A stretch of DNA of 64,000 bases from Saprospiraceae bacterium UBA6168 (GTDB lineage: Bacteria; Bacteroidota; Bacteroidia; Chitinophagales; Saprospiraceae), in assembly GCA_002435785.1 (NCBI GenBank), contig DIUC01000023.1, positions 63,184-127,183 on the forward strand. The letters are read 5' to 3'. Below, piece by piece: positions 3,075 through 46,829 of the stretch; position 1 is the first letter of the stretch; each line of letters starts with the position of its first letter. The translations under genes and the position numbers were made by a program. The notes beneath the pieces are model-generated. The model made no database searches and was not told where the DNA came from. It saw nothing but the letters and a program-made list of their open reading frames with translations.

Positions 3075-3195
3075 AATATTTGGGTGGCATAATTTAGGTG
3101 GAAGTACCGTTCATTGGAACAACAAAATGCGATAAGTTAAAAATGGTTTTTGCCCTTGCTGATAACCCCACCATCAATTCCGAATAAACAAGCAC

Positions 3196-4621: not shown

Positions 4622-4786
4622 CGTGGTATTGGCTTTTAAATACAAGCCCCGTTACTCCCTCGATTTTTTGGAAACCCTGTTTTCTTGAGATAAATTATAG
4701 ATTTGCCTTTCTTCGCTCCAAAGCTTCCAGTAACACAATCAAATCTTCACAAGAACCTATCTATTCACCGTTTAAATAATTTTGTA

Positions 4787-5689: not shown

Positions 5690-5723
5690 ATCATCACATG
5701 TTCGCATGAACCTTGGTTAAATC

Positions 5724-5761
5724 AAACTGCCCCGTTAGCGATATAGTTGACGGGGCAGTTT
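5724..5761. terminator. Bidirectional hairpin between convergent genes
   Basis: Perfect 12-bp stem, aaactgccccgt / acggggcagttt, with a 14-nt loop, followed by gctttt. Confidence 0.6.
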
Positions 5762-5794
5762 GCTTTTGAAGCCAATGGAATCAACTATTTTACC

Positions 5795-7759
5795 TCATTT
5801 CTTTTCAGGAAAATATTGCTGCATCAACATTTCATATTCCTTGATGTTCCGAACATTGTCAAGGTCGCCATCGCTATTGATATCCTCATACTTGTATCCG
5901 TTTTGGATTGCTTTTTCGAGCCATAAAATTGCGCTGGAAGGATGGTTTTGCAGCGAATTAAGGCAAGCAAGATTAAAGTAAGTGTCAACATCTGGGCGCA
6001 ATTTTACCAACTTTTCATTTACTTTAATTCCCATTTCATATTGCTCCAAAAGATAAAATACATACCCTAAAACATGATAGGCATCCACAAAATTTGAATC
6101 TACCTCAATTGCTTTAAGCCCCATTCGCTCCGCATCTTCCAAACGCCTCCATTCTTTAAATGTCCCAGCGGCATTGAAATATGGCATAACCCACTTCGGT
6201 GCCAACTCCATTGCCATCTCATAATTATCGATCTGCTTTTGAAACAGTTCCGAGTTTTTTTCTTGGTTGCCGACCTGATAAGGTTTTCTGATTTCATCAT
6301 AAATCAACCCAATCTCATTGTAAACATAAGCAGCGTCAGGGTCATATTCGAGTGCCTTATTTTCTAATGTCAATGCCTCTTCAAACAGGGAGGCATTCTT
6401 TGTTTTTACCCCTTCCAACCGCTTTGTCAACCCTTCAAAATAATACTGCTTGGCCAGTAACTGCGGGTACAAAACATGCGACTTACCCAGCAATGATGCG
6501 GCTTTTGCAATATATACCGGGTTGTTTTTGTACCGGTCAATATCCTCGTTCCAACGAGCGGCCAGCTCCTCCGGGTCGGCACGGAGGTAGGCATTAATGG
6601 CTTGTTGCGATTCTTCCTGAAGTGCCACGGCGAAGTTCCGCTTCATTACATGGCGCATCGGTTCCAAAGCGGGTTCATCCTTCAACCTATCGTACAGCTC
6701 GCTCGCCGAGCGACCGGGCTGGCGGTCGGCTTTTTGGTCGGAGGGCAAGAAGTAATGGACATCCACGGCAGCCAAAAATTCAGCGTAAAGTTGTTGAACC
6801 GAGGTGTCCGCATTGGCAAGTAACACCGCTTCAAATCCCTTTGGAGCTATCTTATGTAGCTGATTGGCCGCTTTCCGCGTTTCTTTGAGGACGGCCAATT
6901 CGTCGGGGTCCACAGCACTGAGTTGGGTACCCTTGTTGCCGGTCGTGTTTGGGAACTGCTTCTGGTCGGTTTCGGTGGGCACTGTTTCCATCAAGTAGCG
7001 ATCCAGTTCAAACAGGGTCACTTTTTGGTCGCTATTGCCGTCCGCCATGCCTGTAAGCCCATCAATCAGGTGGAAGGAGAAAGCTCCACGCCCGCCGCCC
7101 CACTGCTCGCCTTCGAGCGAAAGTTCATTGGGTTGGCAGGACATGATTTTGATTTGGTTCTGAAAAATGGCAGCCATTGCGCTGGCCGTGGACAGGACGC
7201 CCTCCCGTCCTCCGGCAAGGTTCCCGGAGCGGCAAGCATCCGTGATGAGCACGATTCTGCACTGGTTCTTTTGCACGAATGTTTCGAGGTATTCATTGAG
7301 GTCTTCCAGGCGCACCCCGCCGATGCGGTAATTGGAGGGGGGGGTGTCGTAGGCCAGCAGGTATCCTTGTTGCCGCAGGGTTTTGGTCTCTACGTCGCCA
7401 TGACCGGAGAAGTAAATCAGCACCTGGTCGTTCGGTTTGGTGACTTCCAACAGCCAATCGAGGCCCCCATAAATCTGGGCATGAGTGGCTTTATCATTCG
7501 TCAGCACTTTAATTTGCTCGTCCTTTAACTGGCCGCCAGACTTGGATTTTAAATAAGCTACGAACTCCGAGGCGTCCCGGTGGGCATATTTCAAATCTGG
7601 GATATGGTCATCTTGGTAATCGGACACGCCAACCACCAGCGCCCAAGTCTTGCCACCGTCCGATGCCTCCAAGGGCAGCGCACCAGCCCCTTTGGTTTGC
7701 TGCGCAATAAGGGTGGCAGTAACAAAAAAGGAAAAGAGGAAACTGAATATTTTCATCAT
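5795..7759 (-). CDS. Secreted caspase-family (peptidase C14) protein with C-terminal TPR repeats (paralogue 1)
   Basis: Signal peptide MMKIFSFLFSFFVTATLIAQQ (start at 7759; the ORF extends to 7795). His/Cys dyad motifs LIYFSGHGD and LITDACRSGN. TPR-like C-terminal half. Confidence 0.8.
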   Translation of the reverse strand: MMKIFSFLFSFFVTATLIAQQTKGAGALPLEASDGGKTWALVVGVSDYQDDHIPDLKYAHRDASEFVAYLKSKSGGQLKDEQIKVLTNDKATHAQIYGGLDWLLEVTKPNDQVLIYFSGHGDVETKTLRQQGYLLAYDTPPSNYRIGGVRLEDLNEYLETFVQKNQCRIVLITDACRSGNLAGGREGVLSTASAMAAIFQNQIKIMSCQPNELSLEGEQWGGGRGAFSFHLIDGLTGMADGNSDQKVTLFELDRYLMETVPTETDQKQFPNTTGNKGTQLSAVDPDELAVLKETRKAANQLHKIAPKGFEAVLLANADTSVQQLYAEFLAAVDVHYFLPSDQKADRQPGRSASELYDRLKDEPALEPMRHVMKRNFAVALQEESQQAINAYLRADPEELAARWNEDIDRYKNNPVYIAKAASLLGKSHVLYPQLLAKQYYFEGLTKRLEGVKTKNASLFEEALTLENKALEYDPDAAYVYNEIGLIYDEIRKPYQVGNQEKNSELFQKQIDNYEMAMELAPKWVMPYFNAAGTFKEWRRLEDAERMGLKAIEVDSNFVDAYHVLGYVFYLLEQYEMGIKVNEKLVKLRPDVDTYFNLACLNSLQNHPSSAILWLEKAIQNGYKYEDINSDGDLDNVRNIKEYEMLMQQYFPEKK

Positions 7760-7946
7760 GGTAAAATTTGAAAAGCCGGAATTGTGGCAGTTCATTTTAT
7801 TCTCGTAAAATTAGGCTTCATTTTGTAATCAACCGAAAATTATTTTGACTTTTGATGATGCCTTACACACCCAACTCCGTATTAACTTTAAACCGAACTT
7901 CGGTATGAGCAACTTTATATCCGCCATTTCACAAAATAAGACCTTT

Positions 7947-9698
7947 ATGAAGTTAGCAACTTTAATCATCGCCGCCTGCTGCCTCAGCTTCTATTATTTA
8001 CCAAAAACAGCATTGGTTATCACTAAGTGTACTGATAATCCGCTCCGGGAAAGTACTGCAACGAAAGAAACAAACTTGTATGGCATTGCCGACTTCACAA
8101 CTGAACCAGCATTAGCCGATTCCTACAAGGCCAAGGTCGTCATGGACGTGTTCAAGCGGCTCAAAAATGCCAAGGGCGACTTCCGTTCCCGGCGGCCTTA
8201 CCTGCATTTTGTCAAGGAATCCGGCAGCGGCGTGGCGGCGGCGTACCCAAAGACCGGCCTGATTTTGCTCGAAGAAAAAGGCTACGACATCTGCGTCAGT
8301 TTTGGCAAGGATTCGCTGAACGCACTGGCCGTGCTGCTCGCCCACGAACTGGTGCATTGCTACGAAAAGCACGATTGGGAGGAGTATTTCGCCAGCGAGT
8401 TTAAGGGTTTTGGCCTCGGCGGGGAAGTGAAGGACAACATGAAGGACGACGAAATCCAAGCAGACTACCTTGGTGGGTTTTTGGCCTACCAAGCAGGTTT
8501 TACCACATTTGGTATCATGCCCAAGTTCTTGGATAAGGTGTATGAACAGTACAACCTCAGCGATGAAAAACTGTCCAATTACCCCAAAAAAGAGGAGCGG
8601 AAGAACATTGCGAAGCAATCGGAAGAAAAGCTAAAAAACCTGCTGGAACTTTTCGAAATGGCCAATTTTCTCGTGGCCATGGAGGAGTACGACGATGCCC
8701 TGGAATATTACTATAAGGTGCTGGAAGATTTCCAGAGCCGAGAGATTTACAACAACCTCGGCGTGTTGTCCACCCTGTCGGCCATGAAGCTTTTCACCCC
8801 GCTGCAAAACGAATATTCCTATCCGGTTGAACTTGACGTCAAGTCCCGACTGGGTTCAAGGGGCGATTCGAAAAAGGAGCAGCGGGAGGAAAAGCTCCTT
8901 GCGGCCATTGATTTTTTTGAAAAAGCCCGCCAGCTCGACGCCTTTTATCCCATCGCCTACCTCAATGAGGGCTGCGCACATGCACTGCTTGGCGTGTCAC
9001 AAACTGAGTTCAGCAAAATGGAATGGGAGGATGCCCAAATCGCTGCCAACCGTGCCGTTCGGCTGGCCAAGGACGACCCTGCCCTGCAAAGCACACATGG
9101 CGATGCACTGGTGTTGATGGGCATTTTGAGCGCCTTGAAAAAAGACTCCATTGGTGCTGAGCGCCATTTTGATGCGGCGCTCGCCTTGGACCCGCAGCAT
9201 TTGGTGGCACAGACCAACCGCCATGTCCTGCGGAAAACAAAAGCCGAGGTCCGCTTGGCAAGGGGTGCCAACATCACCAACGAGGTGATTGAAAACACCC
9301 CATTCAACACCATCAAGCTCAATGCCGACAACAAAAAAGCCGATATAACTGCCTTGGACGATTACAAAATCACCTTGCTCGCAAAGAACTACGACCAATC
9401 CAAGGTGCTGGCCAATGCATCCACCACCGGCACTGGCAGCAACAAAATCAAAAAGAACACTTTTTTGCATTTCACGGCCCCCGGCTACGACCTACCATCG
9501 GCCAAAGGCGCTAAAGTCGGCGACAGCTTCCAGTCTGTTCTGGAAAAATATGGAGAGCCATCTGCCCGTATGAGCCTCGGCCACGGCACTTTTTTGCGCT
9601 ACAAATATGATGACCAGACAGGTGGCGGCGGCGGCGTTATTTTCCAGTTCGAAGGGCATAAATTGCTGCGGTGGTGCGTGTATAGGCAGGTGCGGTAG
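7947..9698 (+). CDS. Secreted HExxH metallopeptidase-like protein (M48/M56-like gluzincin motif) with TPR repeats (paralogue 1)
   Basis: MKLATLIIAACCLSFYY N-terminus (start at 7947 inside ORF 7845-9698). GKDSLNALAVLLAHELVHCYEKHD, then DDEIQADYLGG 36 aa after the first His. TPR-like region follows. Confidence 0.6.
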   Translation: MKLATLIIAACCLSFYYLPKTALVITKCTDNPLRESTATKETNLYGIADFTTEPALADSYKAKVVMDVFKRLKNAKGDFRSRRPYLHFVKESGSGVAAAYPKTGLILLEEKGYDICVSFGKDSLNALAVLLAHELVHCYEKHDWEEYFASEFKGFGLGGEVKDNMKDDEIQADYLGGFLAYQAGFTTFGIMPKFLDKVYEQYNLSDEKLSNYPKKEERKNIAKQSEEKLKNLLELFEMANFLVAMEEYDDALEYYYKVLEDFQSREIYNNLGVLSTLSAMKLFTPLQNEYSYPVELDVKSRLGSRGDSKKEQREEKLLAAIDFFEKARQLDAFYPIAYLNEGCAHALLGVSQTEFSKMEWEDAQIAANRAVRLAKDDPALQSTHGDALVLMGILSALKKDSIGAERHFDAALALDPQHLVAQTNRHVLRKTKAEVRLARGANITNEVIENTPFNTIKLNADNKKADITALDDYKITLLAKNYDQSKVLANASTTGTGSNKIKKNTFLHFTAPGYDLPSAKGAKVGDSFQSVLEKYGEPSARMSLGHGTFLRYKYDDQTGGGGGVIFQFEGHKLLRWCVYRQVR

Positions 9699-9708
9699 GC
9701 GGAGGTTC

Positions 9709-10017
9709 CTACCCAAGCGAAGACCTGAACCCCTCAAAATCGGTCACTGTCTGCAATAGCAAGATGCCTTCGCCCTGACAAGCTGCTTTGACATCATATT
9801 TGAAGGTCGGGAAATGTGGGTGAGGAGCATCCCTGGCAAACTGCCGGGCTATCCTCAGCCGCTCCGGTATGTCTTCCTCCACCTGCTTTTCGGTTTCCGG
9901 TTTCACCTCAACGGCTGGCTCATTTTCAGCCTTGCCGATTGCGCCTGACTGTTTTTGTTGTACAAAAAGCAGGTAGTCGAGGTAGTTGATCAATTCCTGC
10001 AAGTATTTTGGCTCCAA
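9709..10017 (-). CDS. Hypothetical protein (weak)
   Basis: 102-aa ORF. The N-terminus LQELINYLDYLLFVQQKQ resembles DUF2281-type antitoxin N-termini. No partner gene and no other support. Confidence 0.25.
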   Translation of the reverse strand: MEPKYLQELINYLDYLLFVQQKQSGAIGKAENEPAVEVKPETEKQVEEDIPERLRIARQFARDAPHPHFPTFKYDVKAACQGEGILLLQTVTDFEGFRSSLG

Positions 10018-10354
10018 TTGATGAATGAGCTTTTCGATTTCTACGGTTGCCGTGGCTTTATTTTTTTACAAGTAAAAGTATGCGACAAGAGTTCCAATGC
10101 GCTGAAGGGGGCAACAGGGAAGGTGCCCGTTATTTCTTGTTCACCTTCCCCCATCATCAGCTCCCCAATACCCCAAGTAGTCATTGGGGAAACCCTCGAT
10201 GAGGAACGCCTGCGGCCCAGCCGAAACTCGAAGAAGGTATTGGGCTTGCTCTAATTATGGCATAGTTGTACATTTTTTTCCAAGAAAAGCCCTTTTTGTC
10301 GGACGCATTTCCTTTCTGATGCCAATAGGAGCAGCATTTTTAACCCAAATCCAT

Positions 10355-10362
10355 TAGGTTTG
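10355..10362 (+). promoter_or_regulatory. Candidate -7 box (TAGGTTTG) for caspase-TPR paralogue 2
   Basis: Exact TAnnTTTG 38 nt upstream of ATG 10400. Confidence 0.35.
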
Positions 10363-10399
10363 CCAATATCTTCTTTTTATCATTAAACACGTCTCTAAC

Positions 10400-13300
10400 A
10401 TGAAAAACCCTTATTCAATGAAGCGATTGCTTTTTGCCTTCCTCCTGTTTTCAAGCATTACCGTACATTCTCAGACGAACCCGACTCTGTCAATCGGGGA
10501 GGGCAACGGAGTGGCCCGTGCGGTGGTCATCGGCATTTCCCAATACGATAACGCAGGCAACGAAGACCTCCGGTTTGCGGACCGGGATGCCGAGGTTTTT
10601 TACGACTACTTGCGTTCCAAGGCAGGCGGGAACTTGCCGGAAAACCATATCAAGTTGCTCACCAATGATATGGCCACCATTGCCTCCATTGGCATTGCCA
10701 TGAAATGGCTAAAAGATGAAACCAAGAAAGGCGACATGGCCATTTTCTATTTTTCGGGGCATGGAAAAGTGGAAACCAACCCGATTGCGGAGCACGGCTT
10801 TTTGTTGGCTTCCAACTCGCCGCCGAACAACCTGAAAAACAATTCCATAAGGATTGAGGATTTGGACGAAGACGCCAAGTTCTTGTCATCGGTGAAAGAG
10901 GCCAAGGTGATATTCATCCTGGACGCCTGTCGGTCGGGGACTATCGCCAATGTAGGCCCGACCCTCAGCCCTGAACTCCGGGGCAAGCAGAAAGAGAACG
11001 AGGTGCGCCTGCTTTCCTGCAAGGCCGACCAACTGTCATTGGAAGATACGGCTTGGGGGCAGGGTAGGGGGCTGTTTTCCTACTACCTCGTGAACGGACT
11101 AACGGGCTTGGCAGATGCGCAAGGCGATGGGGTCGTCACCTTGGAAGAACTGAAAGAATACCTGACGGCGAACATAAAAAAAGCGCTGGCGGATGGGAAT
11201 TATAGCCATCGGCAAACCCCGGTTTTTGTGGGCGAGGATGAAACGTTCGAGTTGGCGAGGGTGGACGAGCCTTCCTTGCTTGCCTTGCAGGAATCGCTCA
11301 AAAACCAGCAGGATGAACATACGGGTATGGCCATGGTCGCAACCTCCAGCGGGGTCGGCAAAGGCACTTCGGTTGCCGACGACGAGCAGCTTATGGAGGA
11401 CCGAGCCATTGCTGCTTATCTGAAAGCGTTGGATTTAAGCCAGTTGGCTGCCAGCGATGATTTTAATAGGGCGCTGGAAAGCAAGGAGGACTTGCTTCAA
11501 TATATCCTATCGCACAGAAACGCCAGTTTTACCGCCGATTCGCCGGAACTGAAAGCGGGGGAAGCTGCCTTTAACCAATTGGCGCAGAGTGGGGAAAAAG
11601 ACATGGAGGCAAGCACCCAATTGTCCAATTTCATAGCCATAGAACTGCACAACCAGGTGCAAGCTGGCATCAACCGCTACCTGAGCGGCGACCTTGAAGA
11701 ACTTGCCCTGCGTCAGTTGAAAAACAAAATTGGCGAGTTCGGTAAATATCCAAGGTTGATGAAGGCAATCATGTTGATGATTGAGCCAGACCAGGTGCTA
11801 TACCGTCAATTGGAGGTGAATTACCACTATTGCAATGGCGTATATGCAAGGCTGAACAAGCAGTTGGGGCATATCCCTACTGACCCGAACGACGACCCAT
11901 TGACCCACCAAGAAAAGGCACTTGCCCTTGACGGGAAAGCATCCTATGTTCACAATGAAATGGGGCTTATTTACTTGATGTCCAATGACCTCGAAAATGC
12001 CGAAAAGCATTTTGTCAGCGCTGCCGAGCTTGCTCCGGGCTGGGCGTTGCCACCTGCCAATTTGAGCATCGTTTACAGTGCGCAAAATAAACCGGAACAG
12101 GCAGCCGCCAGTGCCAACAAAGCCGCTGAACTGCAACCGGACTACTATGCGTCTTATACCACTTTGGGCAAAATAGCGCTAAACAAAAAGGACTATCTCC
12201 GAGCCGAAACCATGTACAAAAAGGCCATTGAACGGAACAAAGCCCATTTTTTGGCCTACCAGAAATTTGGTGAGGTATGCCTTGCGACCACCCGCTACGT
12301 CGAGGCGGAAAGGAATTTCCAAATCGCTGACAGTTTGTTTGCCAATGTTCCCTCAGCTCCTACCATGGATTTTACAACGGCTGCGACCCAAACTATAGTT
12401 TGGGATAGGCCGCTGCCCATCAGCGTTGTTGATTATCCCCTCCATGCCAACCCCAAGACCGTGAAGGAATGGATGAACAATGGGGAGGCTTATTTTAAAT
12501 TGGGCAATTATGCCGAAGCGGAAATGAGCCTGCGCAAGGTGGTGGAACTTGAACCCAAGCATCCGAAGGTATATGAACTATTAGGGCAGACCCTACTTGC
12601 GCAGGGCCGCTATGAGGAAGCAGCGCTATGTATTGAAAGATTGATGAAGATGCGGCCCAAAGAGCCAGCGCTGAAGCTGCTGTATGCTGATGTTTATCAA
12701 AAACAGGGTCGTTGGGTGGAGGAAGAAGCGATATACAGAAGTCTTATCAACGTCAAGGACACGCTCGTGAATTTGAGAAGCGATGCTTTCATAAGGCTGA
12801 TACAATTGGCGGAAAGGCAGGAGCGCTATTGGGAACAAGAGCAATTGATGATAGAATATGAGGCGCTGTTCGGCGCAAACCCCTCGGTCAACCGCCTTGA
12901 TTTTTATGAAAAAATGGTTCAACAGCATCCCGGAAACCTCGATTGGCTGAGCAAGCAGGCGAACTTTTATGAAAGCCAAAATAATAGTACATGGGCCTGC
13001 GGCATTTATCGGCAAATTCTCCAAAAGGATTCCTTGTGGGAGGGTTCGGGATATATGCACGCAAGAATCGGCTACAATGCCAGCGAGGATAGCATTGCCA
13101 TTTCGCATTTTTATGCGGCCATTCGGCACCTGCCGGGCTTGAGTTCCCCCAAGCTTGACCTTGCTCGCATCTACCACCAGCAATTGGCGTTTGACCAAGA
13201 AATCACCGTCTTGGAAGATATGCTGAACAGCGGCCAGATTGACTTTGAACGCCGCCTCCACCTTGCGGATTTGTACATGCTTTCCAACCGCTACGACGAA

Positions 13301-13621
13301 GCGGACAGCTTGCTCATCACTGCCGAAAAAATCAGGCTGGAAGAAGTGGTTGGATTGAACGAACTGCGTGGGAAATTGGACCTGCTCCGAGGCCAACCCA
13401 AAACCGCCATCGGGTTCTACGACAAGGTACTTGCCTCCAAATCCGTCAACAACCCAGCCGAAATCTATTTCACCATCGCTCGCCTGTATGCTTGGGCCGG
13501 CAACAAAGACCAAGCATGGAAATGGCTGCAAAAAGCCATTGCGGGCGGCTTCAAATACAAGTTGGTGGTTCGGAATGACGAAACTTGGAAGGATTACCCA
13601 CAACGGTTGGATACGGAATAG
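10400..13621 (+). CDS. Secreted caspase-family (peptidase C14) protein with a long TPR array (paralogue 2)
   Basis: Signal peptide MKRLLFAFLLFSSITVHSQ. IFYFSGHGK and FILDACRSGT. ~750 aa of TPR-like repeats. Collinear with 17591-20902. Confidence 0.85.
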   Translation: MKNPYSMKRLLFAFLLFSSITVHSQTNPTLSIGEGNGVARAVVIGISQYDNAGNEDLRFADRDAEVFYDYLRSKAGGNLPENHIKLLTNDMATIASIGIAMKWLKDETKKGDMAIFYFSGHGKVETNPIAEHGFLLASNSPPNNLKNNSIRIEDLDEDAKFLSSVKEAKVIFILDACRSGTIANVGPTLSPELRGKQKENEVRLLSCKADQLSLEDTAWGQGRGLFSYYLVNGLTGLADAQGDGVVTLEELKEYLTANIKKALADGNYSHRQTPVFVGEDETFELARVDEPSLLALQESLKNQQDEHTGMAMVATSSGVGKGTSVADDEQLMEDRAIAAYLKALDLSQLAASDDFNRALESKEDLLQYILSHRNASFTADSPELKAGEAAFNQLAQSGEKDMEASTQLSNFIAIELHNQVQAGINRYLSGDLEELALRQLKNKIGEFGKYPRLMKAIMLMIEPDQVLYRQLEVNYHYCNGVYARLNKQLGHIPTDPNDDPLTHQEKALALDGKASYVHNEMGLIYLMSNDLENAEKHFVSAAELAPGWALPPANLSIVYSAQNKPEQAAASANKAAELQPDYYASYTTLGKIALNKKDYLRAETMYKKAIERNKAHFLAYQKFGEVCLATTRYVEAERNFQIADSLFANVPSAPTMDFTTAATQTIVWDRPLPISVVDYPLHANPKTVKEWMNNGEAYFKLGNYAEAEMSLRKVVELEPKHPKVYELLGQTLLAQGRYEEAALCIERLMKMRPKEPALKLLYADVYQKQGRWVEEEAIYRSLINVKDTLVNLRSDAFIRLIQLAERQERYWEQEQLMIEYEALFGANPSVNRLDFYEKMVQQHPGNLDWLSKQANFYESQNNSTWACGIYRQILQKDSLWEGSGYMHARIGYNASEDSIAISHFYAAIRHLPGLSSPKLDLARIYHQQLAFDQEITVLEDMLNSGQIDFERRLHLADLYMLSNRYDEADSLLITAEKIRLEEVVGLNELRGKLDLLRGQPKTAIGFYDKVLASKSVNNPAEIYFTIARLYAWAGNKDQAWKWLQKAIAGGFKYKLVVRNDETWKDYPQRLDTE

Positions 13622-13648
13622 CCGGATGCTGGGCAATATTGGTCAGAA

Positions 13649-13736
13649 GGGATTTCTAAGCTCGAAGAGATTGGAAAGCCCGGTAGTTGATTAGCCCGGC
13701 AGTTCAGGCTTAGAAATCCCTATCGGGCTTTCCAAT
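13649..13736. repeat. Palindromic element, family 'GGGATTTCTAAGC / ATTGGAAAGCCC', arms interleaved (A-B-A'-B')
   Basis: A 13649-13661 pairs with A' 13708-13720. B 13670-13682 pairs with B' 13724-13736. All four are perfect 13-mers. The same arms recur at 43564-43647. Confidence 0.8.
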
Positions 13737-13862
13737 CCTTTTGCAAACACTTGTTTTTTTCAAAGCGCAAAAAAAATATTCCCTCCACTGATAACCATTC
13801 GTGATACCCGGTATTGATGGTCATAAAACGATTCAATTTTATCACTTTTCAATCTCGATGTC

Positions 13863-14300
13863 ATGAAAACGAACGCATTTTTCTTCGCTGCTTTTTGCTT
13901 TTTCTTATTGGTAAACGTCCCTTTTTGCGAAGCGCAAAAAATCAATAGCTGGAAGGGCGGCACGCCCGGACAGGAGGCCAATTGGAGCTGCGCCAAGAAC
14001 TGGAGCGCCAACCGGGTGCCCGATGCTTTCCAAAACGTCATCATCCCCGATGTTTCCAGCGGTTCGGGGGTTTATCCAACCATCAAGGACGGTGGGTTGG
14101 AAGTAAACGCACTTATCCTGGAGTCGGGCGCTGCGCTCGAAATAGCAAAAAAAGGTTCGCTATCCGTCATCACGACGCTTGAGCGATATGGTTCTGGCGA
14201 AATGGAGGTGAACGGTGCCTTGTTTGTACCATCCAGCACCTATGCGGCGGGCATGTTGCTCCACACATCGGCAGCAATGGTCGCCATGCGTTCCAAATAA
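13863..14300 (+). CDS. Small secreted hypothetical protein
   Basis: Signal peptide MKTNAFFFAAFCFFLLVNVPFCEAQ. WKGGTPGQEANWSCAKNWSANRVP motif. Followed by terminator 14399-14422. Confidence 0.45.
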   Translation: MKTNAFFFAAFCFFLLVNVPFCEAQKINSWKGGTPGQEANWSCAKNWSANRVPDAFQNVIIPDVSSGSGVYPTIKDGGLEVNALILESGAALEIAKKGSLSVITTLERYGSGEMEVNGALFVPSSTYAAGMLLHTSAAMVAMRSK

Positions 14301-14398
14301 ATTGCCAAATGAAGCATCATTAATATCGTTTTGAACAGTTTCTCTGGATTTAGCAGGTTTTTCCGAGTTTTTCTTTGCATAACTAATCATAAGGAAGT

Positions 14399-14422
14399 CC
14401 CCGGCAGAAAAGTGTGCCGGGG
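14399..14422 (+). terminator. Rho-independent terminator
   Basis: ccccggca gaaaagtg tgccgggg followed by cttttt. Confidence 0.65.
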
Positions 14423-14427
14423 CTTTT

Positions 14428-14435
14428 TAACTTTG
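14428..14435 (+). promoter_or_regulatory. Candidate -7 box (TAACTTTG) for the ECF sigma operon
   Basis: Exact TAnnTTTG 31 nt upstream of ATG 14466, immediately after the terminator. Confidence 0.35.
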
Positions 14436-14465
14436 AGCGTTTGCTAAAACGCCTAATCACTTTTT

Positions 14466-15041
14466 ATGCAAGAGATTACTATTGACGGTGCTTACCTGGC
14501 CGAACTTCGCAAGGGGTCGCCCAAGGCTTTCGAGGAATTGTACAGCCGCTACTTCCGAATGGTGGAGGACATGGTCTTCAAGTTCAATGGGGGCACGGAG
14601 GATGCACGGGATGTTTTTCAGGAGGCGCTGTTCGTCTTCGTGAAAAAGCTGCGGGAACCTGAGTTTGTGCTGACCAGCAAGGCCAGCACTTATATATATG
14701 CCATCGCCCGCAACCTATACCTCAAGAAAGCAGGCAAGGCCACCGTGGAAATCAGCATGGACCAGCAGCAGTTCAGCTTTTTTGGAGAAAAAGAAAGTGC
14801 CGAAACTGGCATGTCGCCCACCGAAAAGGACGCCATGCTGACCATGATGGACGATAAGCTGGGCCAATTGGAGGAGGACTGCCGCTCCGTCATTATATAC
14901 TCGTTTTACCAAGGGCTTTCCCATGCGCAAATCGCAGGATTGACGGGGTACACCGAGGCATTTGTCAAAGTCAAAAAATTCCGGTGCTTAGAGTACCTGC
15001 GCAAGTTAGTCAAGGCCACGGACATTTTCAAAAACCTATAG
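14466..15041 (+). CDS. ECF-type RNA polymerase sigma-70 family factor
   Basis: Region 2-like FEELYSRYFRMVEDMVFKF...DVFQEALFVFVKKL. Region 4 HTH SHAQIAGLTGYTEAFVKVKKFRCLEYLRKL. Confidence 0.85.
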   Translation: MQEITIDGAYLAELRKGSPKAFEELYSRYFRMVEDMVFKFNGGTEDARDVFQEALFVFVKKLREPEFVLTSKASTYIYAIARNLYLKKAGKATVEISMDQQQFSFFGEKESAETGMSPTEKDAMLTMMDDKLGQLEEDCRSVIIYSFYQGLSHAQIAGLTGYTEAFVKVKKFRCLEYLRKLVKATDIFKNL

Positions 15042-15044
15042 CGC

Positions 15045-15869
15045 ATGGAAAATAACGCTTACATAGAACGAATCCACCGATACCTTGCCGGGAGGATGAA
15101 CGATGCCGAAAAGGTCGAGTTTGAGCAGGAAATGAGCAACAACGGTGAGTTGGCGGAAGCCGTAAAAACTGAGGAGAAACTGCTGTTGGGCCTAACATTG
15201 GTTGGTGACGAAGCACTGAAAAAAGTCATCGCCAACACCGATGAGCGCTTAGCGGGCCAGCAATTTTTTAAAAAAGGAAAAATCATTTCATTGTCATCAT
15301 CATCAAATAGCTTTATCATGAAAAAGATGCTTTCCATCGCAGCTGCGGCTGTGGTACTTTTCGGCTTAGTTTGGTGGGGTTTCTTCCGCCAAGGGCCTGC
15401 TACTCCGAATGCCGACCAGCTTTTCGCCGACAACTTCAAGCCGGAAACCGCCAAGTCCACCGCCATTGCGGATGCACTCGCCAACAGCGGCATGGTGGAT
15501 TCGATGGACACCCAGGACAGCCTCCGGGAAGCCCTCGTGCTGTACAACAAAGGCCAGTACAAGGATGCCTGTGTGGCGCTCGACACCTTTCTGGTGTACC
15601 ACCCCACCAACGACACGGCGCAGTTTTACCTCGGCATGTCGCACCTCAACGACTCCCGGTACGCACGGGCCATCGAAGTGCTGGAACCTATCACGGTGTC
15701 CGAAACCTCGCCCTTCAAGCTCGATGCGATGTGGTACCTCGGCCTCTGCTACTTCAAGGTGGACGGCGGCTTTGCCAAGGCCGAGGAAATCTTCACCCAA
15801 CTGGCCAGCAACCCCGAAAGCAAAGACCAGCAATCGGCCAAAGGGATTCTGCACCTGATTGGGCATTGA
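15045..15869 (+). CDS. Putative anti-sigma factor: N-terminal anti-sigma helix, one TM, extracytoplasmic TPR-like domain
   Basis: Starts 4 nt after the sigma stop. IERIHRYLAGRMNDAEKVEFEQEM, TM LSIAAAAVVLFGLVWWGFF. The outside domain is homologous to the cyclase sensor domain (see findings). Confidence 0.65.
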   Translation: MENNAYIERIHRYLAGRMNDAEKVEFEQEMSNNGELAEAVKTEEKLLLGLTLVGDEALKKVIANTDERLAGQQFFKKGKIISLSSSSNSFIMKKMLSIAAAAVVLFGLVWWGFFRQGPATPNADQLFADNFKPETAKSTAIADALANSGMVDSMDTQDSLREALVLYNKGQYKDACVALDTFLVYHPTNDTAQFYLGMSHLNDSRYARAIEVLEPITVSETSPFKLDAMWYLGLCYFKVDGGFAKAEEIFTQLASNPESKDQQSAKGILHLIGH

Positions 15870-15921
15870 GGGGCCGCTCGTTTTCCAAACATTTTTCACC
15901 ACTACTTTCACCACCATTGCT

Positions 15922-17502
15922 ATGCATATAGTCAAAACTGCTTTGGCCGTCGCCTTGGCCTTTGCTGGCGCAATGGGCAGGGCGACCGCTTCCCCCTACG
16001 CCGCCGCAACGCCGCCCATTGCGCAGCAAATATTGGACAAGCTCTATTTAGCCGCTGGGCAGTTTGGGGTGAAAAAGCCAAGCCTCGAAATGTCCAAGGA
16101 GAACAAGAAAGTGGCCGCCTATTACCCCGCCCGCAACACCATCGTGCTGGACGAAAAGACCTACCAACTCTGCCGCTCGATGGGCAAGGACTCCAGCAAA
16201 GCACTGGCATTTGTGCTTGGCCACGAGCTGTCACATGCTTTTCAGAAGGAGGTGTCGAAAACCAAGTCGGGCACCAACTTCCTCAGCTACGACCAGACCT
16301 ACAAGGTGGATACTCGGACGGAAAAAACGGCTGACATCAACGGCGTGTTCACTGCTTTTTTGGCGGGCTACCGGCTTTCCGACGTGGTGCCGACGCTGCT
16401 GCCGAAGCTCTACGATGCCTACGGCCTCACTGGCCGCACCCTCCGTGGCTACCCCAGCCTCGAAGAGCGCAGCCAGTCGGCCAAGGAGGTGCTCGACATC
16501 ACTGACCAACTGATTGACCTCTACGAAACGAGCAGCTACCTGTTGGCCGCAGGCTACTATGACCTGGCCGCCACCAACTACGAGTACATCCTGCAATACT
16601 ACCAGGGCCGGGAGATGTTCAACAACCTCGGCGTGATGTACCTCTTCCAAGCCCTGGAATATTACCAGCCGCAGACCGACCGCTTCGTTTTCCCCATCGA
16701 AGTTGACGCTGCCACGCAGCTCAAGAAGATAGACAAGGCAAGGGGGCCTCAGGAGCTTTCCTTGCAGGAAAAGTTGGTCAGGATGCAACTGCTGAACAAG
16801 GCAGCCAAACATTTCATGCAGGCCATTTTATTGGACGAGAACTACCTGACCGCCAAGCTGAACTATGTGTGCGCCCTTGCCTTGCAGCAAAAACAACAGG
16901 AGGCACTGGCCTATTTTCAAAAAAAGAAACTCCAAAAAACTGCTTCAAAAAGCAAGGCCGAAGCCGATAAATTCAAGCTGATGGAGGCCATTCTCCGTGC
17001 GTTGTCGAACGACAAACGTAATGCAGAAGCGGGTTTCTACCATTTGCAAATATCCAAGAGCCAGCCCGTGGCCGTGGCCGCCCGCTACAACCTTGATGTG
17101 GTTCAGGGCAGGATAGCCATCACCTTGCCGGAGCATGAGTTCCAGTTTCCAGCACAGTTCACAACCCTGATGAAGGGCATGAAAATGGGGCGGATGAGCC
17201 AGCTCGAACCATTAGTCTTGAATGAAAAAGGCGACCTCGTTCGACACTTAACCGAAGCCGGCACGGAGACGTTTTCCTTCGGAAACAACCGGGGCAACGT
17301 GCTGACCATCATCCGGTTCAAGAACAAAATGGCCGGGGACATTGACCTGCTGGAACTGACGGAATCGCTCGACCGGTCGTTTTTTTACAACCTCGTCAGC
17401 ACCAACAGCGGCTACTTTTTGACCTCGGACAAGGACGGCATCATCATAAAAGTGACCAACGACGGGAAGGTGGAGGAGATGGCGAAGGTGATAAAGCATT
17501 GA
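15922..17502 (+). CDS. Secreted HExxH metallopeptidase-like protein with TPR repeats (paralogue 2)
   Basis: Start at ATG 15922 (MHIVKTALAVALAFAGAMG signal) inside the TTG-initiated ORF 15859. GKDSSKALAFVLGHELSHAFQKE, then TEKTADINGV 33 aa after the first His. TPR-like region follows. Confidence 0.6.
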   Translation: MHIVKTALAVALAFAGAMGRATASPYAAATPPIAQQILDKLYLAAGQFGVKKPSLEMSKENKKVAAYYPARNTIVLDEKTYQLCRSMGKDSSKALAFVLGHELSHAFQKEVSKTKSGTNFLSYDQTYKVDTRTEKTADINGVFTAFLAGYRLSDVVPTLLPKLYDAYGLTGRTLRGYPSLEERSQSAKEVLDITDQLIDLYETSSYLLAAGYYDLAATNYEYILQYYQGREMFNNLGVMYLFQALEYYQPQTDRFVFPIEVDAATQLKKIDKARGPQELSLQEKLVRMQLLNKAAKHFMQAILLDENYLTAKLNYVCALALQQKQQEALAYFQKKKLQKTASKSKAEADKFKLMEAILRALSNDKRNAEAGFYHLQISKSQPVAVAARYNLDVVQGRIAITLPEHEFQFPAQFTTLMKGMKMGRMSQLEPLVLNEKGDLVRHLTEAGTETFSFGNNRGNVLTIIRFKNKMAGDIDLLELTESLDRSFFYNLVSTNSGYFLTSDKDGIIIKVTNDGKVEEMAKVIKH

Positions 17503-17590
17503 GTGCTAAATAATTGCTCGAATTCCCTTCCAATTAACGAGTTTTGTCAGTGAAAAGAAGCCCTAAAAATTCTTCCTACAAAACTTCAAG

Positions 17591-20500
17591 ATGAGAAACA
17601 TTCTACTGCTTACCCTTTGCCTTTTCAGCCATTTCCTGCTGGCGCAAATCACCCCTCGCACTGGTACAGACGACGGCGCACAACCCCTGCGGGTAGGGGA
17701 GGGCAACGAGACCCGTGCCCTCATCATTGGCATTTCCGATTACAAGGACGACGGCATCGGCGACTTGCGCTTCGCAAACAGGGATGCGGAAATCTTCGCT
17801 AGCTACCTGCAATCTGAGGCGGGCGGCGCCCTGCCAGACGTGAACATCTGGCGCATGACCAATCAGGAAGCCACCCTCGGTGCCATAGACAATGCCCTCG
17901 ACTGGCTGATAAAAGAAACCAAAAAAGGCGACAAGGTCATCATCTATTTCAGCGGCCACGGCGACGTGGAGCGCCGCACCCTGTGGCAGCGGGGCTACCT
18001 ACTGGTGTACGATACCCCTGCCAACAACTTCCGCAACAACGCCGTGCGGGTGGAGGAGCTCGACGAAATCGTAAAGACACTTTCTGTGGGAAACGAGGCC
18101 AAAGTCGTCGTCATCCTCGACGCCTGCCGCTCTGGCAAACTGGCGACCGCAGGGCCCCAGCTCACCGCCGAACAGCTCGAAAAACAGGTGGAAAACGAGG
18201 TGCGCATCCTCTCCTGCAAGCCCGACCAGAAGTCGCTTGAAAGCGAACTGTGGGGTGAGGGCCGGGGACTTTTTTCCTTTTATTTGGTGAATGGGCTGAA
18301 AGGCTTGGCCGACAAGGGCAGCTTCCCCGACAACGTGGTGACCTTCGACGAACTGCGGGAGTACATCAAAACCAACATGGACAAGGCGCTGAGCGACCCC
18401 GCAATCACGGCTCGCCAAAACCCCGTATTCGTGGGCGACGAGACTTTCGAATTGGCGGAGGTGCGCCCAGATATGTTGGCCGAAGCCTCCCAAGAGATGG
18501 GCCTTGCAATGGCCTCGCCTGCTGGCGCAAGTGGCAAGGGCGTGGTAGAAAAATCTCCTGGCGCTCCCAGCCCCGGCAAGGACGATGCGCTCATCCAGTT
18601 TACACAGGCCGTTGATTTGGGAAAACTGACTGAAGACCCCAGCTTTAAAATCGCCGTGGAAGCCGCAGACCCAGCGGTTTTGCTGCGCTTTTTTACCCAA
18701 AAAATAAGAACCGTTGAGGATGAAAACGGGGCAAACGAAGTGTCGAAGGACGCCAAATCTGCTTTTTTGAGTGCGATTGAACGGGCGGAGAACGATGCCC
18801 CATTGCGCCAGCAACTCCAACAACTGCTGGCCGCACGGCTGCACGACCAAGTGCAGGAGGTCATCAGCGACTACTTGCGTGGCGACGCACGGGAACTCGA
18901 TAAACGCCACTACGCCGACCAAGCGGAAAAATACGTTCAATACCCGCTGATGCTCCGGGCAGCCATGCAGTTGTTGCCAAAAAGCCACCTGCTCTACCGA
19001 AAGGTGGAGGTGAAGTATTATTACTTTGACGGCGTCTGCACCCGCTTGGCCAGCCTGATGTCCGAAGACCACATGTCTAAGATACCGGAGGCGCTGGAAA
19101 AACAAAAAAAGGCGCTGGCATTGGACGACAAAGCCGCCTACATCCATAACGAACTGGGCCTGCTACATTGGATGCAAAAGGACTTGAAAGCGGCGAAGTC
19201 GCATTTTGAGACCGCTGCCGAACTTGCCCCAAACTGGGCGCTGCCATTAGCCAACCTGTGCGCCCTGCTCCTAGAAACAGGGGATTTTGCGAAGTCCGAG
19301 GAGTACGGAAAAAGGGCACAGGCACTGCAACCGGATTATTTTGGAACTTACGTCAACCTTGGTTATTTGGCGGAAAAACAGCACGACCTGTTGAAGGCCG
19401 AAACATTGTACCGCAAGGCTCGCTCCCTGAACGACCCGCACTACCTGCCCTTCGAGCGGCGGGCCTATTTGCAGATCGAAACGGCCCGCTACAAAGAGGC
19501 CGACTGGCAATTCCTGGAGATGGAGCTTCGCAAACAGGGGACGGTGGCGCCATTGAAACGGTTCACGGTGGTAGCTTCCCCGGAGTTTAATATTTATCCC
19601 GATTTCGAGTACCCAAGCCTCTCGGGGCCAGGCGTCGTCCACAAAAAGCCGAAGACGGCGGAGGAGTTTTTTATGACGGGCAAGGCGTATTTTGAACAGG
19701 AACAACCCGATAAGGCGGAGCCGTTCTTCCGGCAAGCCATGCGGTTGGCCCCCAACCACCTCGAAGTGTTTTATTACCTCGGCAAAATATGTTATGACCA
19801 AAGGCGGTACGAAGAAGCCGAACTGTATTTCGGGCGGTTGGTGAGACTGCGCCCGGAGGTGGAGTTCATGCCGTTTTTCTTGGCCGAAGTTTACAGGGAC
19901 TGGCAACGGCCAGTGGAGGAGGAGGCGATTTATCGCAAGTTCATCAACCAAAGTAAGAACGAGGACGTGTTGCGAACAGCCTACCTGTCGCTCAGCAAGC
20001 TGATGAACGGACAAGGACGCTACCCAGAACAAGAATTGTTGCTCTGGAAATTCTTCGAAATTGATAGGAAACCGGCAAGGGGTGAACTCTCCATGTTTTA
20101 TTATTCCATGGTCCAGCTTTTTCCAAACAACCCCGACTGGCTGTACCGACAGGCCAACTATCAGTACCATCATGCCGGCCATGCTTTGGGCGTGTGGACC
20201 ATGAAGGAGTTGGTGAAAATAGACAGCACCTATCCTGCGAATGCTTTTATCCATGCCCGGGTCGGCAAGTATTATTTGGAATATGGCGAGCAACCCTACC
20301 TCAACGAAACGGATGAAAGATGGCAAAACGACATACCCAAAGCCATCGCCCATTTGGAGCAATCCGTCCGGCTGGCGCCTACCTTGCCTACGGCAAAATA
20401 CGAACTTGCCACGGCCTACCTATTGTTGTTCCGATACGCTGAGGCGCTGGCCCTGCTGGAAAGCTTGCGGGACTCCAACGACCTGCACACCGCAAGCCGC

Positions 20501-20902
20501 TTGCAATTGGCCGACCTATACATGCGTTCCGGCAGGTTTAATGAGGCAAAGGCGTTGTTGGACAAAGCTTGGGACATCCATCCCGAACCCATTCCCGGCT
20601 TGCCCGAACTTACTGGGAAGCTGCACCAACTCCAAGGCGAAACAGCCAAGGCCATTGATTTTTATGAACAAGCAAATGGGCTGGAAAGGGAATATGACGA
20701 TGGCAGCCTCTGCTACACCCTCGCCCGCATGAACGCCCGTATGGGCAATAAAGAAGGGACATTAAACTGGATAGAACTTGCATATAAGAATGGCTTTCGA
20801 TATCCGAGGGTGCTGAAGTATGACCCGGATATGGACAAGTTCCGGCAGGATGCGGATTTTGTGGAGGTGTTAGGGAGATGCCCGGAGTCGGTTTGGGATT
20901 GA
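17591..20902 (+). CDS. Secreted caspase-family (peptidase C14) protein with a long TPR array (paralogue 3)
   Basis: Signal peptide MRNILLLTLCLFSHFLLAQ. IIYFSGHGD and VILDACRSGK. Collinear with paralogue 2 over the full length. Confidence 0.85.
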   Translation: MRNILLLTLCLFSHFLLAQITPRTGTDDGAQPLRVGEGNETRALIIGISDYKDDGIGDLRFANRDAEIFASYLQSEAGGALPDVNIWRMTNQEATLGAIDNALDWLIKETKKGDKVIIYFSGHGDVERRTLWQRGYLLVYDTPANNFRNNAVRVEELDEIVKTLSVGNEAKVVVILDACRSGKLATAGPQLTAEQLEKQVENEVRILSCKPDQKSLESELWGEGRGLFSFYLVNGLKGLADKGSFPDNVVTFDELREYIKTNMDKALSDPAITARQNPVFVGDETFELAEVRPDMLAEASQEMGLAMASPAGASGKGVVEKSPGAPSPGKDDALIQFTQAVDLGKLTEDPSFKIAVEAADPAVLLRFFTQKIRTVEDENGANEVSKDAKSAFLSAIERAENDAPLRQQLQQLLAARLHDQVQEVISDYLRGDARELDKRHYADQAEKYVQYPLMLRAAMQLLPKSHLLYRKVEVKYYYFDGVCTRLASLMSEDHMSKIPEALEKQKKALALDDKAAYIHNELGLLHWMQKDLKAAKSHFETAAELAPNWALPLANLCALLLETGDFAKSEEYGKRAQALQPDYFGTYVNLGYLAEKQHDLLKAETLYRKARSLNDPHYLPFERRAYLQIETARYKEADWQFLEMELRKQGTVAPLKRFTVVASPEFNIYPDFEYPSLSGPGVVHKKPKTAEEFFMTGKAYFEQEQPDKAEPFFRQAMRLAPNHLEVFYYLGKICYDQRRYEEAELYFGRLVRLRPEVEFMPFFLAEVYRDWQRPVEEEAIYRKFINQSKNEDVLRTAYLSLSKLMNGQGRYPEQELLLWKFFEIDRKPARGELSMFYYSMVQLFPNNPDWLYRQANYQYHHAGHALGVWTMKELVKIDSTYPANAFIHARVGKYYLEYGEQPYLNETDERWQNDIPKAIAHLEQSVRLAPTLPTAKYELATAYLLLFRYAEALALLESLRDSNDLHTASRLQLADLYMRSGRFNEAKALLDKAWDIHPEPIPGLPELTGKLHQLQGETAKAIDFYEQANGLEREYDDGSLCYTLARMNARMGNKEGTLNWIELAYKNGFRYPRVLKYDPDMDKFRQDADFVEVLGRCPESVWD

Positions 20903-43543: not shown

Positions 43544-43563
43544 GGTTGTATTTTTAGCGAGGT

Positions 43564-43647
43564 ATTGGAAAGCCCGAAGGGATTTCTAAGCCCAAGTGGT
43601 TGGTCGTTGAAGGGCTTAGAAATCCCTCGTTCCTCAGGCTTTCCAAT
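43564..43647. repeat. Palindromic element, family 'GGGATTTCTAAGC / ATTGGAAAGCCC', nested (B-A-A'-B')
   Basis: B 43564-43575, A 43579-43593, A' 43612-43626, B' 43637-43647. Fills the nosF-nosY junction. Confidence 0.8.
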
Positions 43648-43651
43648 CCCT

Positions 43652-44356: not shown

Positions 44357-44374
44357 GGCTTGCTGGTATTTACG

Positions 44375-44442
44375 ATTTACGATTTACGACTGACGATTGA
44401 GGGCGCAGAGACTGCGTAAATCGTCAGTCGTAAATCGTAAAT
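44375..44442. repeat. Perfect 24-bp-stem hairpin built from (A/C)AATCGT heptamers
   Basis: atttacgatttacgactgacgatt (44375-44398) / aatcgtcagtcgtaaatcgtaaat (44419-44442). Fills the nosD-nosF junction. The nosD stop (44424-44426) lies inside the right arm. Confidence 0.85.
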
Positions 44443-45668: not shown

Positions 45669-45673
45669 GGTCT

Positions 45674-45748
45674 GAGGAATGAGGGGTGAGGAATGAGGGA
45701 GGAAGGATGCCACTGTCACGTCATCCCTCATTCCTCATTCCTTATCCC
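45674..45748. repeat. Imperfect palindrome of GAGGAAT/GAGGGxx heptamers at the nosL-nosD junction
   Basis: The left arm contains gaggaatgaggga and the right arm tccctcattcctc. Same family as 46763-46827. Confidence 0.7.
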
Positions 45749-46755: not shown

Positions 46756-46762
46756 GTTATAA

Positions 46763-46827: not shown

Positions 46828-46829
46828 TG

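Follow-up and report, generated by a model that had tools for sequence, protein, structure and literature searches.

Two neighbouring copies of a predicted periplasmic caspase and M48-like protease module linked to membrane signal transducers in a Saprospiraceae bacterium

Why do genes for secreted caspase-like proteases and metallopeptidases stand side by side around a sigma factor? The question was raised by a stretch of 64,000 nucleotides of Saprospiraceae bacterium UBA6168 (assembly GCA_002435785.1, contig DIUC01000023.1, positions 63,184–127,183), called the window below. A reading of its letters by a model (the sequence-only reading) had described, between positions 5795 and 20902, an island of caspase and metallopeptidase genes, both with tetratricopeptide repeats (TPR), around an extracytoplasmic function (ECF) sigma/anti-sigma pair. 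The best explanation of the region is that a conserved periplasmic protease module found in Saprospirales occurs here in two copies, one next to the other. On this explanation each copy combines two TPR-bearing proteins, a secreted cysteine protease of the caspase fold with a TPR array and a zinc protease of the BepA-like M48 type; both copies are tied to a transducer in the membrane, and a single periplasmic sensor domain, TPR-like, is common to the two transducers. All the open reading frames (ORFs) that had been claimed were present at their coordinates, and the independent gene calls of four metagenome contigs agreed with them. The divergent arrangement of caspase A and metallopeptidase B and the tandem arrangement of metallopeptidase G and caspase H were also as described, with H starting 88 nucleotides 3' of G. 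The genes, in window coordinates, are the following.

Copy 1, with caspase C adjoining:
3209–4621, plus strand: class III nucleotidyl cyclase, with a first transmembrane (TM) helix (residues ~8–27), a periplasmic TPR-like sensor, a second TM helix (residues ~214–233) and a Guanylate_cyc domain.
4787–5689, plus strand: up_328, a secreted protein of ~300 residues with no Pfam match, recurrent partner of A/B-type pairs.
5795–7759, minus strand: caspase A, 654 residues, a secreted Peptidase_C14 domain, helical linker, TPR array and TPR_END tail.
7947–9698, plus strand: metallopeptidase B, 583 residues, divergent from A, an M48-like HELVH/ExxAD domain, TPR and C-terminal beta domain.
10400–13621, plus strand: caspase C, 1073 residues, a secreted Peptidase_C14 domain, long TPR array and TPR_END tail, syntenic in the related loci L005 and L006.
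Copy 2:
13863–14300, plus strand: D, a small secreted protein of 145 residues without family assignment, directly upstream of the sigma gene.
14466–15041, plus strand: ECF sigma factor, 191 residues, Sigma70_r2 and Sigma70_r4_2 domains (Pfam).
15045–15869, plus strand: putative single-pass anti-sigma factor, 274 residues, a cytoplasmic N-domain of ~90 residues, a TM helix (residues ~96–114) and a periplasmic TPR-like sensor of ~160 residues.
15922–17502, plus strand: metallopeptidase G, 526 residues, a signal peptide, M48-like domain (H101, E102, H105, E134), TPR and C-terminal beta domain.
17591–20902, plus strand: caspase H, 1103 residues, a secreted Peptidase_C14 domain, long TPR array and TPR_END tail.

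The three caspase paralogues shared 30–35% identity in pairwise comparison, and the motifs YFSGHG and DACRSG were invariant among them. Profile scores (Pfam Peptidase_C14, PF00656: 62.6 bits for A, 54.9 for C and 58.5 for H, cut-off 21.4), signal sequences and dyad motifs all upheld their description as secreted C14-TPR proteins. H120 and C176 of caspase A were invariant in 24 homologues. In the alignment with yeast metacaspase Yca1 (4f6o), YFSGHG corresponded to HYSGHG and DACRSG to DSCHSG, so the proposed dyad falls on the catalytic His and Cys of a solved metacaspase. The N-terminal domain of the AlphaFold2 model of caspase A (predicted local distance difference test, pLDDT, 82.8) was matched by Foldseek to the metacaspases 7qp0 and 4f6o, to MALT1 (3v4o, with a template modelling score, TM-score, of 0.72 on the target) and to GSU0716 of Geobacter (3bij), with E-values from 6e-8 to 1e-7; the C-terminal half matched TPR superhelices. 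A, C and H, with the dyad intact in sequence and, in the model of A, the expected fold, are putative cysteine proteases. The common tail W(L/I)xKA..G(F/Y)(K/R)Y, which the sequence-only reading had picked out, is real and corresponds to a known domain, TPR_END_plus (NCBIfam NF047558; 44–47 bits, cut-off 32). All three proteins begin with a hydrophobic signal sequence which, as read from the letters, ends in A/S followed by Q. The C-terminal domain of the secretion system of type IX (T9SS; Por_Secre_tail in Pfam) was missing in all of A, B, C, G and H. Because signal sequences are present and this domain is absent, the most likely location of the caspases is the periplasm, and the extracytoplasmic character claimed for the proteins held. 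The nearest NCBIfam caspase family was caspase_w_EACC1 (NF047832) with 77–82 bits, below its cut-off of 140. No EACC1-type neighbour was found among the window ORFs scanned, and assignment to this EACC1-associated type was rejected on both grounds.

The two metallopeptidases were related to each other with 32% identity over 355 residues (E 8e-45). For B, an earlier start at 7905, giving 597 residues, is possible according to the gene calls on the metagenome contigs. The HELxH motif and the ExxAD motif, located 33 residues downstream in G, were invariant across 20 homologues, and the positions H101, E102, H105, E134 and D138 (G numbering) did not vary in a 20-sequence alignment. The Pfam M48 profile (PF01435) matched G with 29.4 bits for a cut-off of 20.3. 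B on its own fell below the cut-off, and eight members of the N-domain family out of 11 matched M48 individually. A profile of the N-domain aligned with the M48 peptidase 3c37 (HELaH with HEINH and lEksADiqG with YENQADFLG, E 0.006). Two HExxH-TPR paralogues with an ExxAD motif had thus been correctly recognised, and their residues line up with those of a solved M48 enzyme. B and G, with conserved catalytic residues and, in the model of G, the expected fold, are putative zinc proteases.

The AlphaFold2 model of G (pLDDT 84.9) showed a peptidase domain, a stretch of TPRs and, at the C-terminus, a beta domain, and its best matches in the Protein Data Bank were all Escherichia coli BepA (6sar, 6ait; E 1e-5, TM-scores 0.23–0.30, ~15% identity). 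BepA (YfgC) is an M48 metalloprotease located in the periplasm, its TPR domain being C-terminal, and bepA belongs to the sigmaE regulon. The BepA equivalog model NF052400 did not match B or G. In view of this result, B and G are taken as BepA-like in architecture and not as orthologues; the low TM-scores, the ~15% identity and the extra C-terminal beta domain also led us to reject orthology. An exhaustive HMMER search collected 1233 representative clusters for the M48-like N-domain family. Among the top 150 of these, nearly all had a like size and layout. Word-indexed homologue searches under-sampled the families, with 44 matches for G and 42 for the sensor domain discussed below, the cyclases being missed. 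In the sources sampled, members were mostly unnamed or labelled as hypothetical or TPR proteins. The M48-like family is an undescribed partner family.

Is the pairing of the two kinds of protease more than an accident of gene order? Two samples of loci were compared. The G-type sample consisted of the window and 13 fetched loci of species-representative genomes encoding a relative of G, 14 in all; the fetched loci were searched with the proteins of the window. The B-type sample contained eight loci, including four metagenome loci from the exhaustive search (L022–L025) and one complete genome (L026). Conservation in related genomes, which the sequence-only reading had itself chosen as the test of its proposal, was found in genomes and metagenomes alike. 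A caspase-fold gene neighboured the M48 gene in 13 of the 14 G-type loci, with variable gene order and caspase type, the sole exception being L009 on a contig of 7.7 kb. A C14-TPR neighbour was present in 8/8 B-type loci, with B-type orthologues beside C14-TPR genes in L005, L006 and L022–L026 and the A-type gene adjacent or at most two genes away in L022–L026. Among relatives, a C14-TPR gene directly 3' of G was seen in the closest one only, L005; L006 shared the upstream synteny and ends within G. In the more distant G-type loci, all large neighbours tested were caspase-fold proteins: C14-DUF4384 proteins in L007, L008, L010, L011, L014 and L015, a C14 protein in L012, in L016 a protein of 1064 residues whose C14 domain is C-terminal, and an ankyrin-TPR-CHAT protein in L013. 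The catalytic dyad was kept in the C14-DUF4384 and C14 neighbours, and the caspase-fold neighbours of the distant loci all had hydrophobic, signal-like N-termini.

An explanation without any functional unit would assume that caspase-TPR and TPR-peptidase genes underwent an expansion in this lineage and came by accident to lie near an ECF pair with which they have nothing to do. The caspase-TPR family is indeed very large (more than 1153 clusters), and some members lack an M48 partner: of two randomly chosen caspase-TPR loci, L026 had one and L027 had none. The linkage in 13/14 and 8/8 loci, maintained despite rearranged order, orientation and caspase architecture, speaks against such an expansion, as do the shared cis motif and the shared sensor domain described below. 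Chance adjacency is implausible, even allowing for the shared ancestry of the loci, because the linkage is frequent and yet the record number of metacaspase genes, that of Haliscomenobacter, is 28 per genome (PMC3501461). We consider this explanation strongly disfavoured and very improbable. The case of L027 shows that the caspase family is the broader one, to which the M48-like family appears to be an accessory. In Aquimarina and in another Bacteroidota genome, where the sensor of the anti-sigma factor has remote homologues, the sigma factor, the anti-sigma factor and a secreted TPR-CHAT protein were kept, and the M48 gene was absent. The caspase-fold partner is thus interchangeable (C14-TPR, C14-DUF4384, TPR-CHAT), and the M48 gene is missing from these Flavobacteriia triads. 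The evidence shows a conserved unit of four parts: a membrane transducer whose periplasmic sensor is TPR-like or of the CHASE2 type, a caspase-fold protease that is secreted, small secreted proteins and, in Saprospirales, a BepA-like M48 protein.

Some further neighbours were recorded at these loci. A conserved secreted protein of ~530 residues, with no Pfam family and no homologue in the window, was always next to the C14-DUF4384 gene in L007, L008, L010, L011 and L012 (e.g., L010 4530–6125). In L007, the gene at 3747–6533, flanked by the C14-DUF4384 gene on one side and by the sigma operon on the other, encodes a patatin-like phospholipase that is cytoplasmic and has a TPR-S sensor domain.

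To which transducers are the proteases linked? In copy 2, the sigma factor scored 58.3 bits against TIGR02937 (cut-off 42.9), and the next gene starts 4 nucleotides past its stop codon. The product of this gene is a putative anti-sigma factor, on the strength of its position, its topology and the linkage of sigma, anti-sigma and G-type M48 genes in 12 of the 14 G-type loci; it matched the anti-sigma model NF052375 weakly (16 bits for a threshold of 100), and its N-domain contains no Cys. An ECF sigma factor and a putative membrane anti-sigma factor with a TPR-like outside domain thus lie upstream of G and H, as described. The protein D, in front of the sigma gene, was rejected as a conserved component. 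Its orthologues in L005 and L006 are preceded by the same two-block motif as in the window (see below); in L007 and L008 the place is taken by small secreted proteins without homology to D, and for this reason position and motif alone can be called conserved. On metagenome contig L003 (JGI 3300001605), the anti-sigma gene of the island was called as two genes of 58 and 183 residues (9174–9948), caspase H was split into 908 and 196 residues (11670–14983) and B was shorter (536 residues); these could be frameshifts, pseudogenisation or assembly errors.

In copy 1, the transducer is the nucleotidyl cyclase (Pfam PF00211, E 4.6e-50; TM helices placed by hydropathy), whose gene lies beside the A/B pair just beyond the interval covered by the sequence-only reading. 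Its periplasmic sensor aligned with the TM helix and periplasmic domain of the anti-sigma factor with 36% identity (E 1e-24). The same cyclase recurred next to an A-type caspase in L010, homologues of up_328 adjoined caspase/M48 pairs in L010 and L022–L025, and in L022 and L023 the membrane partner alongside the B-type pairs was a CHASE2 protein. The proposed wiring of the proteases to ECF signalling is supported in the G-type loci by synteny (12/14) and by the shared motif; the B-type pairs stand with a cyclase or CHASE2 protein and have no sigma gene nearby, so the module is not confined to ECF sigma factors, and the interpretation given by the sequence-only reading finds support in part. 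Giant WD40-repeat proteins (1223–1325 residues) also flanked caspase/M48 pairs in L023 (9927–17743) and L022 (1–3265), and at least two of the three such proteins of L022/L023 carried C14 domains.

Do the two copies respond to a common control? A two-block motif was found upstream of genes of both copies. It is made of an A-rich block (GAAAA), a spacer placing this block ~17 nucleotides upstream, and the sequence CTGATAAC(C). The elements located outside the coding sequences are listed here.

3138–3166, plus strand: two-block motif, A-rich block, spacer and CTGATAAC (match at 3159), a putative promoter dependent on the ECF sigma factor, 50 nucleotides 5' of the cyclase gene.
13768–13795, plus strand: two-block motif, CAAAAAAAA, spacer and CTGATAACC (match at 13788), 75 nucleotides 5' of D.
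14399–14422, plus strand: GC-rich hairpin followed by a T-run between D and the sigma gene, a terminator or attenuator, kept in L005 and L006.

When up to one mismatch was allowed and the A-rich block was required, these two matches (13788 before D and 3159 before the cyclase) were alone in positions 1–26000 of the window, both at predicted promoters. The motif before D is a putative autoregulated ECF promoter for D, the sigma factor, the anti-sigma factor, G and H. The motif was present 18–118 nucleotides 5' of the sigma gene, or of a preceding small secreted gene, in 11 loci; it was also upstream of the caspase genes in five loci (L007, L008, L010, L011 and L013) and of the M48 gene in L017. 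The 16-mer ACTGATAACCATTCGT before D was identical to the 16-mer before the sigma gene of the distant locus L014, where the proteins are ~31–37% identical. A copy within the 5' end of B, facing A, was kept in L005 and L006, the A-rich block being absent in the window. The CTGATAAC motif was not found 5' of the sigma, anti-sigma or TPR-CHAT genes in the Aquimarina-type loci. Because the upstream motif is shared, the D–sigma operon, the cyclase gene and, in relatives, the caspase genes are predicted to form one regulon, where the sigma factor would drive its own operon (with G and H), the cyclase and the caspase genes of relatives. Downstream of the hairpin, TAACTTTG resembles the -7 box of Bacteroidetes sigmaA, and the two elements may constitute an attenuator plus a basal promoter. 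A simple scan for the sigma70 consensus gave no useful signal, and an Rfam scan of positions 1–26000 found nothing. In L014, the genes at 19404–20567 and 18354–19262, several kilobases 3' of the sigma, anti-sigma and C14-DUF4384 genes, have the same upstream motif; one of them has an astacin-type HExxHxxGxxHE signature.

Such a regulon could be explained by assuming that the proteases are output only. The sigma and anti-sigma factors would sense an envelope or extracellular cue through their own TPR domain, and the proteases, D and the cyclase would be regulon members with no role in the activation of the sigma factor. They would serve in the periplasm as effectors that remodel the envelope or control protein quality, in the manner of BepA under sigmaE in E. 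coli. The position of G and H within the sigma operon, the common motif before caspase, M48 and astacin-like protease genes, and the fact that the closest solved structure to G is BepA, encoded by a member of the sigmaE regulon, all agree with it. The B-type pairs, on the other hand, are tied to non-transcriptional transducers (cyclase, CHASE2) with no sigma gene nearby, and transcriptional output cannot explain this linkage. The same sensor domain lies next to both protease pairs, and the link to caspase-fold proteins persists in distant taxa though the rest changes, a pattern typical of signalling partners. We judge an exclusive output role, the main rival of the model proposed next, possible and on the whole doubtful.

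How might the proteases act in signalling? A precedent exists in Myxococcus, where the anti-sigma factor DdvA is fused to a periplasmic TPR-CHAT domain and was proposed to be its own site-1 protease ahead of RseP (PMC11506125). We propose, tentatively and with a confidence just short of even, that the proteases engage the sensor domains and that the caspase-fold enzyme is a trans-acting site-1 protease for the anti-sigma factor, with positive feedback. In this model, the ECF sigma factor would be held by the anti-sigma factor. Upon an envelope or extracellular cue, the TPR-bearing proteases would contact the periplasmic TPR domain of the anti-sigma factor, and the caspase-fold enzyme would cut it as a site-1 protease in trans, in a split version of the TPR-CHAT fusion of DdvA. 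The M48 protein would be a processing or quality-control partner. The freed sigma factor would boost its own operon, with G and H, and the cyclase, giving positive feedback and a second-messenger output. This protease-sensor model is favoured because the pairs also accompany non-transcriptional transducers and because the sensor domain is shared. Cleavage of the anti-sigma factor is a hypothesis, as is the zymogen activation that the sequence-only reading had suggested beside it.

Several points weigh against it. The link from the proteases to the anti-sigma factor is one that we infer, and the alignment of the juxtamembrane linker of the anti-sigma factor showed no evident conserved basic residue, the P1 preference of meta- and orthocaspases. 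Proteolysis is not an obvious on-switch for a cyclase with two TM helices. No motif (up to one mismatch) was found 5' of A, B and C in the window, the motif before protease genes elsewhere fits output-only proteases equally well, and the motif is a putative promoter whose dependence on this sigma factor we infer. Because the loci share ancestry, fewer of the observations are independent than the counts suggest, and the Foldseek TM-scores between G and BepA are low (0.23–0.30).

The protease-sensor model may be part of something wider. A periplasmic pair of caspase-fold and M48 proteases, positioned by TPRs, could be a widespread and so far undescribed device of envelope sensing in Bacteroidota, activating transducers by proteolysis or complex formation. 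The transducers may be the anti-sigma factor, the nucleotidyl cyclase and the CHASE2 proteins, with the common TPR sensor or the CHASE2 domain as the point of contact. We regard this extension as unlikely, if worth stating. If true, bacteria would have in it their own equivalent of protease-activated receptors and of protease cascades outside the cell, with a trans-acting version of the site-1 step of DdvA.

A role in conflict or programmed cell death has also to be considered. In filamentous, multicellular Saprospiraceae, the secreted caspases and their partners would be the effectors of a response directed at kin or at invaders, and the sigma factor and the cyclase would be alarm transducers. 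The record numbers of metacaspases in Saprospiraceae (PMC3501461) and the control of a defence island by DdvA/DdvS (PMC11506125) are in its favour, as are the affinity of the caspase domains to caspase_w_EACC1 and the patatin-TPR-S, giant WD40-C14 and TPR-CHAT proteins at neighbouring loci, which are typical of conflict systems. Against it, the caspase_w_EACC1 scores are below the cut-off and EACC1 is absent, PADLOC gave generic matches only (caspase and PycC domains), which means that no known defence system is present, and the other genes of the window (nos cluster, 2-oxoglutarate dehydrogenase, GH20) are those of an ordinary chromosome. The proteins are moreover periplasmic here and the known NTPase-caspase conflict systems are cytoplasmic. 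Such a role, which is compatible with either the protease-sensor model or the output-only explanation, appears distinctly improbable.

The remainder of the window also encoded a UvrA paralogue and T9SS cargo. Homologues of the island's proteins were named as proteins of Saprospiraceae, Lewinellaceae or Bacteroidetes metagenome-assembled genomes, which points to a Saprospiraceae-like source. The nos gene cluster (42761–48818) encodes NosL, NosD, an ABC transporter and a nitrous-oxide-reductase propeller protein (46830–48818); because of this cluster, the source organism is probably an N2O reducer. Two T9SS cargo proteins with a Por_Secre_tail, one with DUF7619 (22265–24310) and one with SprB repeats (54383–57730), confirm a Bacteroidota host with a T9SS. 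The UvrA-like ABC ATPase paralogue (28678–31713) has 1011 residues, and a 1950-residue ORF (58120–63972) had a weak CarboxypepD_reg match alone.

Bacterial caspase homologues are abundant, and almost none has a known substrate or pathway. The module provides a specific, testable candidate pathway, with a sigma/anti-sigma pair, a predicted promoter motif and its regulon, two proteases whose active sites are intact, and the cyclase as another transducer with the same sensor. An M48-like family that had no annotation, more than 1000 sequence clusters strong, is put into a context by it, and it may help to account for the record metacaspase numbers in filamentous Saprospiraceae, which are important in activated sludge. 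It also offers a trans system for the idea raised by DdvA that caspase-fold proteases serve as anti-sigma site-1 proteases.

How does the module compare with known systems? Protease-coupled ECF anti-sigma signalling is of an already known kind. The new elements are the sensor shared by the anti-sigma factor and the cyclase, the upstream motif and the M48-free Flavobacteriia triads of sigma factor, anti-sigma factor and secreted TPR-CHAT protein. No description of a sigma/anti-sigma/M48/caspase module of Bacteroidota was found in the literature searched, the coverage of which was incomplete. CHAT, caspase and M48 are unmentioned in the main text of the ECF reclassification paper, and neighbours with CHAT domains were noted in the ECF literature for ECF54 alone (PMC8999054). 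The claim that no system of this architecture had been described thus holds for the Bacteroidota module in that literature and has to be tempered by the partial precedents of DdvA and BepA. Surveys of orthocaspases and metacaspases described domain architectures and mentioned operon sigma factors only in passing (PMC3501461). The caspases of the window resemble the surveyed proteins in their C14 p20-type domain, their His-Cys dyad, their interaction repeats and their abundance in Saprospiraceae (Haliscomenobacter); the conserved M48 partner, the anti-sigma/cyclase sensor domain and the shared motif are absent from that survey and related ones.

In the type III-E craspase, the TPR-CHAT protein Csx29 cleaves the anti-sigma-like Csx30, releasing an ECF-type sigma factor (PMC10028731). 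Both systems have a TPR-bearing caspase-fold protease, and in craspase an ECF sigma factor is controlled through the cleavage of an anti-sigma-like protein. Craspase is cytoplasmic, RNA-guided and CRISPR-associated, whereas the proteins here bear signal peptides and no cas genes accompany them. A craspase identity was rejected on account of these signal peptides and of the absence of cas or CRISPR-related domains from the window ORFs scanned with Pfam. G is like BepA in having an N-terminal M48 HExxH/ExxAD peptidase followed by TPRs, in its periplasmic location and in its predicted control by an ECF sigma factor. Unlike BepA, B and G have a shorter spacing from HExxH to the Glu (33 residues) and an extra C-terminal beta domain, are obligately linked to caspase-fold genes and give no sign of involvement with the machinery for beta-barrel assembly (BAM) or LptD.

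The nearest described system is DdvA/DdvS of Myxococcus. As in DdvA, a periplasmic caspase-fold protease module with TPRs is genetically tied to a single-pass anti-sigma factor and its ECF sigma factor. A DdvA-type TPR-CHAT anti-sigma factor was rejected for the window, given the 274 residues of the protein, the lack of Cys in its N-domain and the separate caspase-fold genes. The caspase-fold protein is here a separate secreted polypeptide (C14 in the window, C14-DUF4384 or CHAT in relatives), with the caspase domain before the TPRs, whereas in DdvA the TPRs precede CHAT. The anti-sigma factor here has a small TPR domain (~160 residues) and lacks the Zn-binding CHCC motif, and an extra conserved M48-like partner is present. 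The hosts are Bacteroidota instead of Myxococcota, and DdvA/DdvS controls a defence island whereas none is controlled here. We read the module as a trans, split form of DdvA-like and sigmaE–BepA-like systems, to which an M48 partner family has been added.

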